DNA of 34,448 bases from a virus (lineage: Duplodnaviria; Caudoviricetes). Positions 1 to 34,448 of the stretch are shown here, in pieces (the stretch's first letter is position 1; each line of letters starts with the position of its first letter). Position numbers and translations under genes: made by a program. The notes below the pieces were generated by a model, which saw only the letters and a list, made by a program, of their open reading frames with translations, was not told where the DNA came from and ran no database searches. Where the stretch lies: IMG/VR virus record IMGVR_UViG_3300030059_002339, positions 1 through 34,448 of that record; one strand, 5' to 3'.

Positions 1-114
1 TTTTCCTTGCAGGGTGTTCGGTAAAGGCATGGGTGAGCAGGCAGGGGGTGTTCCGCTGTAACTCTTCGGATTAACCACAACCACAGAGGGGAATGAGCAA
101 TTAAATTGACTCAC
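1..114. repeat. Terminal direct repeat, copy 1 (identical to 34335-34448); contig circularises
   Basis: TTTTCCTTGCAGGG...AATTGACTCAC occurs verbatim at both ends (114 bp). Confidence 0.97.
72..96 (+). repeat. 25-bp direct repeat TAACCACAACCACAGAGGGGAATGA, copy 1 (contains RBS + ATG)
   Basis: Identical to 346-370. Confidence 0.95.
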
Positions 115-148
115 AGAATAGCCTTTTTAGACGAGAGGATTGATAAGA

Positions 149-370
149 ATGGAAAAGATTAAATTTAATGTTTATGAGTACGATTGCAAGGAAGGTAAAT
201 CCCTGTTTAGCGAAGGTGTTAAAAGAGAATTCGGAGAAAACAAAGTTGTAATCGTTGATGGTCATCAAATTATAGCAATCGTAAAGCCACTTCAAGATTC
301 TGGCGGCTTAAAATTAATAGGTTATTTGTACGATTATCCAACAAGTAACCACAACCACAGAGGGGAATGA
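149..370 (+). CDS. Hypothetical protein (73 aa)
   Basis: ORF 140-370; ATG at 149 follows a GAGAGGA RBS; lies between the 25-bp repeats. Confidence 0.7.
   Translation: MEKIKFNVYEYDCKEGKSLFSEGVKREFGENKVVIVDGHQIIAIVKPLQDSGGLKLIGYLYDYPTSNHNHRGE
346..370 (+). repeat. 25-bp direct repeat, copy 2
   Basis: Identical to 72-96; supplies the RBS of the next gene. Confidence 0.95.
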
Positions 371-636
371 TTATGAATAACTTAAAGTTTAAGGCTGATG
401 CCGAGGAATCTACAGACGGCCGCGAGGCGTCAGAGTGCAAATACTGCCATAAATCAAAGCATCCACCACAAATGTCTTCGCGTTATATTTGCCGCGTCTG
501 CTCAAATTCAGCGCAGAAGAAAACCCAGGCTAAATTAAGGGCCGCAAGGCGTGAGGACAGAGACGCCCGTGCAAGCGCAAAAATATACCCGCTTTCTCAA
601 AGTTGGTCTAACTTAGCCATTGTGGTCACTGCTTAA
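367..636 (+). CDS. Small putative zinc-binding protein
   Basis: CKYC...CRVC pairs; GAGGGG RBS; stop overlaps next ATG (TAATG); start may be 373. Confidence 0.65.
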   Translation: MIMNNLKFKADAEESTDGREASECKYCHKSKHPPQMSSRYICRVCSNSAQKKTQAKLRAARREDRDARASAKIYPLSQSWSNLAIVVTA

Positions 637-1205
637 TGGCGACTAAGTGCAGAGTTTGCGATGCTAAACGATCACAGCGGCAGGTTGATAGTATGAACCC
701 TTGTTGTGAAAGTATTGATTGCCAGGTGACGTACTCAATGCAATCTAAGCAGCAGGCCAAAGGTAAAAAATTAGCGGGGGCGGCATGGCGGGCAGATACG
801 GCAGCAAGGAAGAAAGCCGCAAAATCAAAAGGCGACTGGGCAAAGGAGGCTCAGCGAGAGTTTAATAGGTTTATAAGGCTAAGGGATGAGCCGGACGTTT
901 GTATAAGTTGCGGGCGGCATCATGCAGGCCAGTATCACGCAGGACACTATAAGACGGTTGGCGCTAACCCAGAGTTGCGTTTCAATGAGTTGAACTGTCA
1001 TAAACAATGCGCCCCATGTAATAATCATCTTAGCGGTAATATTGTTAATTATCGCGTCAGACTTATTGATAAAATAGGTCAGGATGATGTCGGTTTTATC
1101 GAAGGGCCGCACAAGCCAAAAAATTACATCATTAAAGATTTAGAGCGAATCAAATTAAAATACAAGGTTAAGGCAGATGAGTTACAAGCAAGGTGCAAAT
1201 TTTAA
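636..1205 (+). CDS. ninG: NinG/Rap-family recombination endonuclease
   Basis: [43 protein letters not shown] motifs typical of lambda NinG. Confidence 0.92.
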   Translation: [189 protein letters not shown]

Positions 1206-5870: not shown

Positions 5871-6218
5871 ATGACTGTAAACATTAGCAGGGTAGTTACT
5901 ACAATCGGTGAGAATAGCGATGGTATCACCGAAGATGGCGAGTATTTAATACTTAACGGACAGGCAGAAAAAACAGGCAAGATCAATGTGCGCTGTTCAG
6001 GTGAATTTGGCGGCTCAACTGTCAGCGTTGGTTATTTTGAGAAGGGTGTGTTTTCTACTCAGAACTTACCAAGCGAGAACCCTGCGGCATTTACCGAGTC
6101 ATTCGCTTTGCGCTTTGATTGCGGTACGTTTAATAACATTGGTTCAGGCCCAGCAATACAGATCGCAAGCGTTAGCGGTACAACTGATGCGGTGCTTACA
6201 GTCTCAAGTATTGACTAA
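5871..6218 (+). CDS. Small beta-rich virion protein (possible spike base)
   Basis: SGEFGGSTVSV motif; all-beta composition. Confidence 0.5.
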   Translation: MTVNISRVVTTIGENSDGITEDGEYLILNGQAEKTGKINVRCSGEFGGSTVSVGYFEKGVFSTQNLPSENPAAFTESFALRFDCGTFNNIGSGPAIQIASVSGTTDAVLTVSSID

Positions 6219-7953: not shown

Positions 7954-10097
7954 ATTTTAAAGATCACGACAAAGCTTTGCAGATGCTTTCTAAGGCGCAA
8001 GATGCTGACAGTGATATGAGAGATCAGGTGCGGGAAACTAACGCATTCCTAACGGCTAGAGATGGCCAGTGGGAGGCTGGTTACTTGCCCGACATCAAGA
8101 TGCCTAAATACACGCTTGATAAGTGTAATCCCATTGTTGACTCAATAGCCTCGCAGATTGAAGAACAAGAGTTTGCCGTTAGGGTTAAGCCTGCTGATGG
8201 TCAGGCGTCCAAAGATACAGCCGTTATCTATGACGGGCTAATCCGCAACATACAGAACATAAGTAATGCGGTTGCTGTGTTCAACGGTGTGTCACGCCGA
8301 TCTATTGCTACAGGCTTGTCAGGTTGCCGAGTTGTTCAGGAGTACGCTAGCCCCGATTCATTCGATCAAGATTTGATGATTAAGCCGTTATCAGACTTTG
8401 AGAATCGTGTTTGGTTTGGCCCTTATGAGCTACCAGATGCCTCTGATGCCATGTACTGCTGGGTGTTTGAAGCAATGTCGCCTGATGACTATGAGGCTCA
8501 ATATCCAGAGGGTTCAAAGCAGGGATTAACTCAGGACTTTTGGGAAGATATTTGGTTCGATAAGCCTGATGTGATTATGGTCGCTGAGTTTATTTACAAA
8601 GAGTACAAGACTGTCGAGCTGGTGAAAATGTCAGACGGCGAAGTTTATGAGGACGATGATGACTTTAAGAAGGTGGTTGAAGAGCTGCGCGAAACTGGCG
8701 TAATGGAGGTTAATCGCAAAACTAAGCAAATTTGCGAGGTAAAGACTCGAATGATGGACGGCAAAGACTGGCTAACGCCTGTTCAAGATACCGTCTTTCG
8801 TGATTTGCCAGTAATACAATGCGCTGCCAACTTCCAGATAACACAGAACAAGCCTGTCTACTGGGGCGCTATTGATAAGCTGCTAGACCAGCAACGCCTA
8901 TACAACTACAGCTTCAGCAAACAAGTGGCTGAAACAGCCTTAGCGCCCACTGAAACTATTGTGATGACTAAGCAGCAAGCGGTGGGCAATGACTACAGCC
9001 GTATCAACAGCAACCCCAAGCCGATAATCACATATACGCACGTTGATGGGCAGCCAGCGCCCTATAAGCTACCACCACCAAACGTAAACCCAGCCCTAGA
9101 GGTTATTAAGCAGTCTACTTCTAACGACATTAATGTATCGGCCGGTCAATTTAACGCCAACATGGGCAATAATGCGGGGCTACAATCAGGGGCGGCTATT
9201 GGGTTACAAATTGATAAAGGTGACAGCTCCAACCTGAAGTATGTACAGGATAGAGAAGCTTTTGTTGGTCGTGTTGGTCAGATTCTGGTCAATGCCATTC
9301 CGTACACCTATGACGCAGAGCGACAGATTAGAATTGTTGGCGAGGACGGCACCGAGGATATGGAGACTATTAACACATCCATATTTGATAACGAAACTCA
9401 ACAGGTGGTCGAGCTTAACAACATGGCATCTGGCACTTACGACGTAGTTTGTAACGCACAAAAAACGTTTAAGAATCGCCAAGACACAATGAATAATACT
9501 CTTATGCAGTTTGCAGCGGTTAAGCCTGAAATCCTCGACTTTGCGGCTGACATTATCTTAAAGAATGCTGACGGTGCTGGCTTGGATGCAATCGCTGAGC
9601 GCTACAGGGCGCAGATGCTACCGCAGGGCATAATCCCACAAGAGCAATGGACAGATGAGGAGCTGGCTCAGGCGGAGGCAGCAAAGCAGGCGGCGGCGCA
9701 ACAACCTAAAGAGCCGACTATTCAGGAGCAGATGGCACAATCTCAGTTGATGCTTGGCCAGGCTGAATTGCAGAAAGTACAGGTGCAGACTGCAAACCTA
9801 CAGCAGGATGGGCAAATTGCGGCGGCGAAGCTAGACCAGTCTCAGCAAAGCATTGACATGAAGGGTGACGAGCAAGCATTCAGGCAGCAGCTAGACGTCA
9901 ACAGGCAGCTTACTGAACGCATGAACACAATGGCTGACACAATGAACAAGCTGGTCGAAGCAACGGGCTCAGAGGGCATTGCAGGGCCAAACACGATGCA
10001 GGCTGTATCTAATCAAGCTCAAATTATTACAGGTGAGCAGAATGATATGGGGGCTATGACTAATGAGCAGTTGATGGAGGTTGTGCGCAATGGATAA
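7947..10097 (+). CDS. Portal protein, P22 gp1-like, with long Gln-rich C-terminal barrel
   Basis: 716 aa after terL; GQW, NPIVD, D-Q-R-L-Y-N, SGAAI and YDAERQIRIVGEDG motifs. Confidence 0.92.
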   Translation: MVNFKDHDKALQMLSKAQDADSDMRDQVRETNAFLTARDGQWEAGYLPDIKMPKYTLDKCNPIVDSIASQIEEQEFAVRVKPADGQASKDTAVIYDGLIRNIQNISNAVAVFNGVSRRSIATGLSGCRVVQEYASPDSFDQDLMIKPLSDFENRVWFGPYELPDASDAMYCWVFEAMSPDDYEAQYPEGSKQGLTQDFWEDIWFDKPDVIMVAEFIYKEYKTVELVKMSDGEVYEDDDDFKKVVEELRETGVMEVNRKTKQICEVKTRMMDGKDWLTPVQDTVFRDLPVIQCAANFQITQNKPVYWGAIDKLLDQQRLYNYSFSKQVAETALAPTETIVMTKQQAVGNDYSRINSNPKPIITYTHVDGQPAPYKLPPPNVNPALEVIKQSTSNDINVSAGQFNANMGNNAGLQSGAAIGLQIDKGDSSNLKYVQDREAFVGRVGQILVNAIPYTYDAERQIRIVGEDGTEDMETINTSIFDNETQQVVELNNMASGTYDVVCNAQKTFKNRQDTMNNTLMQFAAVKPEILDFAADIILKNADGAGLDAIAERYRAQMLPQGIIPQEQWTDEELAQAEAAKQAAAQQPKEPTIQEQMAQSQLMLGQAELQKVQVQTANLQQDGQIAAAKLDQSQQSIDMKGDEQAFRQQLDVNRQLTERMNTMADTMNKLVEATGSEGIAGPNTMQAVSNQAQIITGEQNDMGAMTNEQLMEVVRNG

Positions 10098-11313
10098 AGG
10101 GCAGGCGGCTGATGAGTTAGCAAGGCGCGGCGTTACGCTTGAGGATATGAAAAACTATTTTCTAACGGTTGCCGAGCCTGTAGCGGCTATGGGTTCGGGC
10201 ATTGTTGCCGAGCCTTTGGCGGGATTTGCTGGATTAGCTGCGGCCCCTTTCGGTTCAGATGCGGCGGCTAACGCTGTTAATTATTACCGCGATAAACTGA
10301 CTTATTCGCCAAGGTCGGAGGCGGGTCAGTCTGGCATGGCTGCTATTGGTGAGGCGATGGCCCCAATAGGTGAGGCAATGGATTATGCAGCTAGTGGTGC
10401 TGGTGATTACGTCTACGACAAGACAGGAAGTCCGGCATTGGCAGCGGCGGCATACTCAGCACCAACGGCAGCACTTGAGCTATTAGGCTTGAAAGGCGTC
10501 AACCAGTTAAGCAAGTCAGGCAAGCTGGGCCAGCAGTTAGAGTTTGGCGATATAGGTAGCGGTGGGGTAGGCAACAAGCAACGCGGTATCTTTGCGGGCG
10601 TGAAGGCTAAGGCTATTGAGGAGCTAGAGAAGCGCGGCATATCTATGGATTATGACAGCCGCATGGCTAGGGCTAAAGAGCAGGGGCATGAAAGTGGGTG
10701 GTATCACGGTACAGGTTCGGACATAGAGGCTTTTGACCCCAGCAAGGCTGGCACTGCCACTTTATCAGAGAGCGCCAAACAAGGGACATGGTTGACAGAT
10801 GACCCAGAAATAACAGCCAATTCTTACGCTAACTATGCAGCCACAGACGCCAAGGTCGAGGGCAAGGTCAGGCAGGCAGACGCGGCAGGTGATAGGGGCG
10901 ACTGGGATTTATATGACAAGCTAACAAATGAGGCCGAGACTTTAGAGTCAGACTTTTATGACGACAGAAAAAGGGGACAAAACATTATGCCACTTTCATC
11001 AAGGGGCAAATTAAAAAAAATGGACGCCAAAGGTGAGTCATTTAGCTATGCGGAAAACAACATTAATGACTTTATACGCAAAGCCAAAAGCGAAGGGTTT
11101 GATGGCGTGGAGATTGCAAACCTTGATGACGCAGTGGGCAGGGTAGATGTGCCAGCCACCCATAGGTTAGTTTTCGACCCTGCAAACATTCGCTCAGTCA
11201 ACGCAGCGTTTGACCCCGCTGACATAGGCAAAAGCGGGTTATTGAAAAGTGTGGGCGGTGTAGGCTTAGGCTATCAATTCCTAGGCGGCGAAGATGAGCA
11301 GAATCAGCTCTAA
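10090..11313 (+). CDS. Fusion of an ejection-protein-like N-terminal module and an ADP-ribosyltransferase-like (ART-PolyVal type) domain
   Basis: WYHGT..FDP, GTWLTDDP..ANSYA, NIMPL, GFDGV, VFDPANIRSVNAAFDP; N-terminus resembles 20724-22538. Confidence 0.7.
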   Translation: MDKGQAADELARRGVTLEDMKNYFLTVAEPVAAMGSGIVAEPLAGFAGLAAAPFGSDAAANAVNYYRDKLTYSPRSEAGQSGMAAIGEAMAPIGEAMDYAASGAGDYVYDKTGSPALAAAAYSAPTAALELLGLKGVNQLSKSGKLGQQLEFGDIGSGGVGNKQRGIFAGVKAKAIEELEKRGISMDYDSRMARAKEQGHESGWYHGTGSDIEAFDPSKAGTATLSESAKQGTWLTDDPEITANSYANYAATDAKVEGKVRQADAAGDRGDWDLYDKLTNEAETLESDFYDDRKRGQNIMPLSSRGKLKKMDAKGESFSYAENNINDFIRKAKSEGFDGVEIANLDDAVGRVDVPATHRLVFDPANIRSVNAAFDPADIGKSGLLKSVGGVGLGYQFLGGEDEQNQL

Positions 11314-27491: not shown

Positions 27492-27715
27492 GTGAATCGA
27501 ATCCAGTAGAGCCGAGCCACTACGTTGATATGAAGTTATCACCTCTCGACTACATTATGGCCAATGAGGGTGATTTCACATGGTGTATAGCTAATGTCAT
27601 TAAGTATGTATCGAGGTATAAGAGAAAAAACGGGCTTGAAGACCTGAATAAAGCTAGATGGTATTTAGATCGACAAATACAAGAGCTGGAAAACCTAACG
27701 GACACAACCAAATGA
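27488..27715 (+). CDS. DUF3310-like (T7 gp1.7-related nucleotide kinase-like) protein
   Basis: V.PSHY...NVIKYVSRY..KNGLEDLNKARWYL. Confidence 0.85.
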   Translation: MSESNPVEPSHYVDMKLSPLDYIMANEGDFTWCIANVIKYVSRYKRKNGLEDLNKARWYLDRQIQELENLTDTTK

Positions 27716-27978
27716 AAAACCTGCACATAGAACTAGTTAAAAAATGGCTGGCCGATCCTAAATCAGTTAGCGCAGAAGAGTTAGAACGTGCTGATACTGC
27801 TGCTGCGGTTGCTGCTGCGGTTTCTACTGCGGTTGCTAATGCTGCCTCTTATGCTGCTCGCGCCGATAACACTAAGCACTGGGGTGAACAACATACCGCC
27901 GATGCTGCTGCTGCTCATGCTGCTCGTACCGCTCACGCTAAATACTGGCTGGAAAAATATGAGGAGCTAACCAAATGA
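27712..27978 (+). CDS. Ala-rich hypothetical protein
   Basis: MKNLHIELVKKWLADPKSVSAEEL, GCT-repeat Ala tract, YWLEKYEELTK; ATGA overlaps. Confidence 0.7.
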   Translation: MKNLHIELVKKWLADPKSVSAEELERADTAAAVAAAVSTAVANAASYAARADNTKHWGEQHTADAAAAHAARTAHAKYWLEKYEELTK

Positions 27979-28608: not shown

Positions 28609-28812
28609 ATGACAATAACGCAGATTTTAACAATGTCTGACAGGCTTAATCTAAAGGCAGGCACAGAGCTTGCTTGCCGACTGGTAATACTTGAAGGCTT
28701 AACTTTCTACGCTGCTGAGAAACAAGTCTGGGGTCGCAGAACAGGCACAATCGGCAAAGCCTGCAAACGATTGCGCGATGAATTGGAATACTGCAAAAAG
28801 GTAGCGAAGTGA
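28609..28812 (+). CDS. Small HTH-type regulator (TrfB/PapB-like), paralogue of 34031-34261
   Basis: ACRLVILEGLTFYAAEKQ...TIGKACKRL. Confidence 0.6.
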   Translation: MTITQILTMSDRLNLKAGTELACRLVILEGLTFYAAEKQVWGRRTGTIGKACKRLRDELEYCKKVAK

Positions 28813-33958: not shown

Positions 33959-33986
33959 TTTACATATAGCGGTGACTTGCTATTAT
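33959..33986 (+). promoter_or_regulatory. Promoter TTTACA-16-TATTAT with TGn extension
   Basis: Intergenic hexamers upstream of 34031. Confidence 0.55.
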
Positions 33987-34030: not shown

Positions 34031-34261
34031 ATGAACGATAAGCAAAAATCCATAATGCGCCGCAAGCTCGACATGGCTTGTAAAAGCGCCAGAGTATCGG
34101 GGCTAGTTTCAGAGGCGGTGCAGCACGTTATCATCGAGGGTATAACGCCAGCACAGGCCGAGAGAGAGTGGTTAGGCGGCGTGACAAACACGGTAGGCAG
34201 GGCGCTTAATAAAGTTAAAGCCGAGCTTCTTAGATTTGAGGCTTTCAAAGCTATCAAGTAA
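34031..34261 (+). CDS. Small HTH-type regulator, paralogue of 28609-28812
   Basis: AVQHVIIEGITPAQAERE...TVGRALNKV. Confidence 0.6.
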   Translation: MNDKQKSIMRRKLDMACKSARVSGLVSEAVQHVIIEGITPAQAEREWLGGVTNTVGRALNKVKAELLRFEAFKAIK

Positions 34262-34267
34262 TAACAA

Positions 34268-34404
34268 TTTGAGGGGTTACAGCGAAGCGCCTGACTCGCA
34301 ATTATGCAACGCGCATAACTCACAGCCGAGCCGATTTTCCTTGCAGGGTGTTCGGTAAAGGCATGGGTGAGCAGGCAGGGGGTGTTCCGCTGTAACTCTT
34401 CGGA
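34268..34404 (+). ncRNA. Candidate structured RNA (~137 nt, long closing stem, internal hairpins)
   Basis: 17-bp stem 34268-84/34388-404 with G-U pairs, 7-bp extension, two inner hairpin domains; no ORF in the track. Confidence 0.6.
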
Positions 34405-34448
34405 TTAACCACAACCACAGAGGGGAATGAGCAATTAAATTGACTCAC
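34335..34448. repeat. Terminal direct repeat, copy 2
   Basis: Identical to 1-114. Confidence 0.97.

Follow-up and report, generated by a model that had tools for sequence, protein, structure and literature searches.

A putative early operon and its cassettes

The element described here lies on the + strand, as do all features of the operon given below, in a window of 34,448 nucleotides (the whole stretch of DNA analysed, a complete virus record, IMGVR_UViG_3300030059_002339), within an operon whose order is promoter, HTH gene, element, a CA-rich repeat, two small genes and ninG. The last 114 bases of the window repeat bases 1–114, giving a circle of 34,334 bp, and since the end of the window thus duplicates its start, the downstream context of the element was read at window 72–1205. 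The putative early promoter is sigma70-like (TTTACA-16-TATTAT with an extended -10; 33959–33986) and is placed by consensus match, at 10 of 12 positions; the same motif is also found upstream in the relatives L036–L039 and L043. This promoter overlaps a short inverted repeat, an arrangement reminiscent of acr-aca operons. It is followed by a KorA/PapB-like HTH gene of 76 aa (34031–34261), for whose product Atlas features gave 0.92 to PapB/KorA clusters and Foldseek returned KorA as its top matches, weakly (E 0.26). A paralogous gene of the same kind is found at 28609–28812, each of the two standing in a small-gene operon with a sigma70-like promoter, and members of the family in P0006 and P0029 carry an additional N-terminal domain which, by eye, resembles GIY-YIG. 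The first-pass annotation, made from the letters of the window, had placed the element downstream of an HTH gene and directly before the CA-rich repeat, and this is indeed its position: the HTH stop codon stands 4 nt before the closing stem, and the repeat, here called repeat B, starts at 34406.

Repeat B (34406–34430, identical to 72–96) is CA-rich, carries a Shine-Dalgarno (SD) sequence, has a second copy at 346–370 and heads variable gene cassettes. Between its two copies lies a 73-aa cassette gene (149–370), which differs among relatives, and the array is closed by a NinG/Rap endonuclease gene (636–1205). After the element, the repeat B SD is followed by a 3-codon ORF (92–103, equivalent to 34426–34437), and the 73-aa gene starts 57 nt further on with another SD. 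A different SD-bearing cassette head, repeat A (34260–34278, with GAGGGG at 34271–34276), overlaps the 5′ arm of the closing stem, such that the outer half of this arm is formed by a cassette RBS repeat that leads into no reading frame. A second copy of repeat A, in L047, heads a 151-aa gene that lies between the HTH gene and the element, with one copy of the repeat on each side; in L035 three genes lie in this interval, and the genes 3′ of repeat B also vary among relatives. From these arrangements, the element behaves like one cassette, occupying a slot between two RBS repeats independently of the genes that flank it. Cassettes headed by exact CA-rich RBS repeats are shuffled among the relatives (the window, L043, L044, L046 and L047), with a third repeat type in L044. 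Repeat B and some of the cassette genes also occur in phages of a different genome layout (L145–L147), which suggests a shared host and gene pool.

The remainder of the genome gives matches to portal, capsid, head-closure and P22 tail-accessory proteins and to NinB, NinG, an O-like initiator and a DnaB-like helicase, and on these matches the phage is assigned to the P22-like podophages. Among cultured phages, Pseudoalteromonas phage H6/1 has the nearest capsid (66%), and the sequencing runs that match the window best are marine metagenomes; judged by its gene content and matches, this is a circular, marine, P22-like podophage. Comparison of the 54 window proteins to PHROGs gave no match to the N or Q families, in agreement with the first-pass annotation, which had seen neither gene, and none to an integrase or a CI-like repressor; the replication and nin genes are lambdoid. 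Two further proteins are of note. One, of 410 aa (10081–11313, between portal and scaffold), has an ART-PolyVal ADP-ribosyltransferase domain (Pfam E 1e-10), unusual for a P22-like head module, and the other belongs to a family of small alanine-rich proteins (27658–27978) with tandem copies in L146 and L147.

Fold, conservation and distribution

The element spans 34266–34406 (141 nt) and folds as a 27-bp closing stem, P1, around a three-way junction. The G-U-rich 5′ arm of P1 (34266–34292) pairs with the 3′ arm (34380–34406) over 27 positions, with one A·C mismatch in the window. All helices quoted in the first-pass annotation are present where it placed them, though the outer pairing, which it gave as 17 bp, is real but longer than that. 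Inside P1, the 5′ strand of P2, CU(C)GC (34295–34299), forms 4 bp with 34375–34378 leaving a bulged C, and is invariant, so that P2 has no support from covariation. P3 is a hairpin of 6 bp with a 5-nt loop (34302–34318) in which three pairs change on both sides, and the P4–P7 arm (34319–34371), interrupted by three internal loops, is the most sequence-conserved part of the element. By eye, the P3 loop could form a kissing contact with GUGU at 34348–34351 in four of five homologues.

Folding against shuffled sequences, a check that had been proposed with the annotation, gave a z-score of -4.15 for 34268–34404 (none of 200 shuffles was as stable) and -5.6 for 34266–34406. The inner domain of 87 nt is unremarkable when folded alone (z -1.1 to +0.1), and the z-score therefore stems from the outer stem. 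P1 has a pairing probability of 1.0 in a long sequence context, and genome-wide, considering both strands, it is the sole closing stem of at least 22 bp (21 of 22 positions paired, loop of up to ~320 nt).

Across eight distinct rows of the alignment, pairing is kept in 97.5% of 356 cells, compared to 38–46% when the partners are slid. Both partners differ at four pairs, of which three lie in P3 and one in P1, and a single partner differs at ten more, mostly via G-U; P2 and P4–P7 have no both-side change. As the rows form approximately two lineages, the four changes correspond to roughly four independent events. Pairs that change on both sides are no more numerous than the shuffle control gives (119 of 500). 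Among alternative pair states, 16 of 20 keep pairing, and in contigs derived from sequencing runs all four differences at paired sites keep or restore a pair; one diverged contig carries G34392T, which would break a P1 pair unless its unseen partner also changed. On the + strand the fold z-score is -3.3 to -5.8 in five homologues, whereas on the minus strand it falls to -0.06, -0.19 and -1.09 in the three most diverged ones (L040, L044 and L046). This loss of the minus-strand fold while the plus-strand fold is kept settles which strand is used and favours RNA, and agrees with the earlier argument, made from the many G-U pairs, against a DNA palindrome.

The core of the element differs from the window at 3–11 of 70–71 sites in its homologues, compared to 10–21 of 62–69 synonymous codons of the HTH gene (Fisher P 0.0004–0.045). 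It is thus more conserved than neighbouring synonymous sites and probably has a role of its own, though this apparent conservation could be inflated if, through shuffling or recombination of cassettes, the element were younger than the HTH gene. A coding role is unlikely: the overlapping frames of 40 and 45 codons are broken by indels in relatives.

Relatives were sought with the HTH protein as query, which retrieved 16 metagenome loci. Leaving out L034, which is identical to the window, and L049, which ends inside the HTH gene, there remain 14, and our model R1 finds the element in 10 of these, four of them cut by contig ends. L037 and L038 are without it throughout the stretch that starts at the promoter and ends with the last cassette gene, and L036 and L048 end too early for its presence to be decided; no locus searched has more than one copy. 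Contigs from five of eight sequencing runs, belonging to three studies, also cover most of the element. No RNA data set was among the sequencing runs listed as containing it, which has no bearing on whether it is expressed. In run X12, record 7 holds what appears to be a diverged 3′ half (over window 34362–34423, with 9 differences in 62 nt and an apparently longer apical stem-loop); only this 3′ part is visible, and the copy was left out of the count.

Wider searches returned no homologue, and the family therefore looks narrow. Five DNA patterns run against viral contigs identified no genuine homologue, their outcomes being 8 matches judged after folding to be due to chance, none, none, one coding match, and 5 loci with repeat B but without the element; one pattern run against genome contigs gave no match. 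Searches by blastn of phages, plasmids and E. coli genomes gave only short matches (E 0.8–10). Model R1 returned no copy from 49 related virus records, from Pseudoalteromonas phage H6/1, from 10 MAGs with capsid relatives (where it picked up one repeat hairpin at E 0.07) or from two samples of 151 bacterial genomes, with just 21 candidates scored in each genome. Neither the window nor L034 has a match in Rfam 15, which includes C4, SRP, ribozymes and riboswitches, and for L043 the only ones are mir-722 at 20.8 bits (gathering score 81) and a CRISPR repeat at E 4.5. The suggestion that the motif is an undescribed one thus holds against the Rfam search that had been proposed for it. Literature searches listed no report of it, and six words from the element were absent from four of six supplements of PMC10690425, among whose ~10,000 candidates it may still occur.

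A predicted RNase III site and its product

According to PMC3867540, an RNase III site measures 22 bp from box to box, a span that P1 exceeds with its 27 positions and one or two mismatches per copy. With the box geometry given in PMC1540722, checked against the T7 R1.1 cut at 5887, the best register places the cuts after 34283 and 34390, the 5′ cut falling before column 19. This register scores 9.2 compared to at most 3.3 for the 8 others (column-permutation P = 0.001), using weights of our own that were set after the register had been seen by eye and that did not single out the cut register of the lambda stem. Position 2 of the proximal box (D, D′; columns 14 and 21) is A-U in all six full-length homologues, and the outer distal box is U-A/U-G. 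At position 4 of the proximal box the outer half-site is likewise A-U in all six; the inner one is G-C in the window and L039 and A-U in the other four, and G-C at this position is described in PMC3867540 as allowing binding without cleavage.

A matrix derived from cleavage in vivo (PMC6212723, Table S4) gives this register -21.5 to -25.8 and places it best in five of the six homologues; the cut-offs given there are -25.5 (strict) and -33.8, and in our implementation the mapped dicF-dicB site has a similar score of -22.7. Permutation with this matrix gives a P no better than 0.06, so that the score mostly reflects the long stem, and the true dicF-dicB register is ranked third of 17, so that the predicted cut position is soft. 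Mapped sites are approximately 90% paired between the cuts (PMC6212723), and five of the six homologues have a mismatch between the predicted ones. By rules that are those of E. coli, and may not be those of the phage host, the likeness of the outer stem to a substrate is well supported and the exact register 34283/34390 moderately so. RNase III processing was among the options raised in the first-pass annotation, and as a prediction it fares well: by its score, the stem resembles real E. coli substrates.

The reading that we prefer, with a probability of about 0.6, is that the element is a conserved + strand fold whose 27-bp stem would act as an RNase III site, splitting the mRNA and releasing a 107-nt three-way-junction RNA (predicted at 34284–34390). 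Transcription from the promoter at 33959 would carry the element, host RNase III would cut both strands of P1 after 34283 and 34390, and the polycistronic mRNA would be split in two with the 107-nt RNA set free. The mRNA halves would keep a 16-bp duplex, shielding the new ends while the next SD stays open, and in our folds this SD is largely open after the predicted cleavage. More weakly, the released core may be a small protein-binding RNA, because the sequence of the core and one internal hairpin are under selection, which a bare cleavage stem does not need. Taken further, the excised RNA would be a new class that acts early in host takeover or counter-defence by binding a host protein, and the element a swappable ncRNA cassette in which an RBS repeat has been turned into a release stem; this extension is tentative, and we consider it somewhat doubtful.

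Several known systems share parts of this design. The lambda N-leader stem is cleaved by RNase III. Its rIII site is a 121-nt fold whose closing stem of ~22 bp encloses two inner arms and which stops a little ahead of an SD, the same layout as here; it differs in that we find no nut site or N gene, that the downstream gene is variable and that the inner arms are unlike. The RNase III site between dicF and dicB of the Qin prophage has the same long closing stem and multibranch interior, and lies in an early phage operon with an SD just after it; its mapped cuts are 130 nt apart (PMC6212723, Table S5a), and the processing of DicF is described in 10.1101/2023.04.14.536235. There, however, DicF lies upstream of the stem, while the RNA that is conserved here is enclosed by P1; furthermore, the element has no sequence match in E. 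coli genomes by blastn and is an optional cassette. The early sites of T7, R0.3 to R1.3, are likewise described as processing stems of the early mRNA, placed between genes and ahead of RBSs, but as short, simple hairpins repeated along the genome, with R1.1 cut on one strand, whereas the element is single and encloses a junction domain. By analogy, the element would work in the way of the RNase III stems known from lambdoid early operons, with cleavage a prediction; what is new is the sequence family, its place in a slot for gene cassettes and an interior that is conserved.

Competing readings and wider meaning

The whole 141-nt fold might instead be a stable, uncut ncRNA or a decoy for a protein (RNA polymerase, RNase III or a defence protein), with P1 a mere scaffold for the junction. 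The inner domain is unstable alone while its sequence is conserved, the element is located among small unassigned early genes, and the G-C pair that the window and L039 have at position 4 of the proximal box would be compatible with binding without cleavage, all of which would suit an uncut RNA. Such an RNA has no promoter or terminator of its own here, however, and some nuclease must free it. Though the element and E. coli 6S RNA have short words in common, the likeness is marginal, post hoc and not collinear (P 0.02–0.29 for the longest word and 0.47–0.90 for global alignment), and the Rfam 6S family (RF00013) gives no match at E up to 10. On balance we find an uncut RNA unlikely. Also to be considered is a cis-acting antiterminator, suggested in the first-pass annotation, that would modify RNA polymerase in the manner of HK022 put RNAs, which act in cis through the β′ zinc-binding domain, such that the downstream lysis and structural genes are read through. 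The lack of an N or Q match would leave room for one, and the position, ~270 nt after the promoter and just past the HTH gene, recalls that of putR after cro (PMC9378689), as do two inner stems covering ~70 nt. This suggestion is weakened by the absence of the element from L037, which keeps the holin/endolysin block, and from L038, an absence that argues against an essential antiterminator. The distance from promoter to element also varies from ~270 to ~1600 nt, there is no excess of terminators downstream, and local alignment shows no similarity to putL (P 0.05–0.52, a low-power test with putL only). In the passages on them in PMC9378689 the put RNAs are two stem-loops, with no long stem mentioned as enclosing them, whereas the element is enclosed by 27 bp; antitermination thus seems to us quite improbable.

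A conformational switch, riboswitch-like or coupled to the ribosome, would use alternative pairings to control the SD of the next cassette, and had been suggested from a pairing of GUGAG(CAGG) with an upstream CCUG-A-CUCGC. The CUCGC:GUGAG part of this pairing does form, with a probability of 0.23 in the window; neither CUCGC nor CUCAC varies and either can pair with GUGRG, and the 3′ arm holds an anti-SD-like CUCUUC. The CCUG/CAGG extension is lost in relatives, however, and the switch is not conserved: the alternative helix ranges in probability from 0.002 to 0.57 across five homologues, while P1 stays at 1.0 in the long context. Removal of the 5′ arm captures the SD fully in one of six contexts (the window only), and the gene that would be controlled varies among relatives, leaving little likelihood for a switch. 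Smaller still is that of a hairpin acting at the DNA level, or a small mobile element (MITE- or attC-like), that moves between cassette slots. Its patchy presence, the different genes that it follows and the resemblance of L037 to an empty site could point this way, but each locus searched has at most one copy, the strand asymmetry and the retention of G-U pairs favour RNA, and the arm motifs are in the reverse order to the attC consensus. The L037 junction, moreover, keeps the GAGAT gene start seen in L047, and is better read as the result of a deletion than as an empty site.

Known RNA classes were also compared. Retron msr-msd RNA, which is marked by a conserved branching G next to its closing stem and by a linked reverse transcriptase (RT), was rejected, as column 28 may be G, A or U and no RT family was found among the proteins scanned, and for the hammerhead, HDV-like ribozymes, group II domain V, Y RNA and phi29 pRNA the key residues vary (judged by eye). 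For a C4/CI-type antisense RNA, which would have complementary targets among the transcripts of the phage itself, the longest exact match outside the locus is 10–11 nt. T4 RNA C (species 1, 139 nt) is of similar size and a small stable phage RNA, but it lies in a tRNA cluster, has a T-loop-like hairpin end and is without a long closing stem; the element is unlike it, and a likeness to T4 RNA C/D is unsupported.

The accessory early regions of phages are usually read as arrays of small proteins, and here one slot of such an array holds an RNA that moves with the RBS repeats of genes. If a functional RNA is released by RNase III, as in our preferred reading, host-takeover arrays may carry RNA effectors that protein-based annotation has missed, and a long closing stem between RBS repeats would be a signature by which to search for them. 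If the element is a processing site only, it would add an unrelated marine lineage to those that use the lambda N-leader/dicB design. The position just 3′ of the HTH gene is occupied in L035 (630–660), L036 and L038 by a short alternative hairpin, with a GCC/GGC stem and an A-rich internal loop, that precedes the SD of the cassette replacing the element there.
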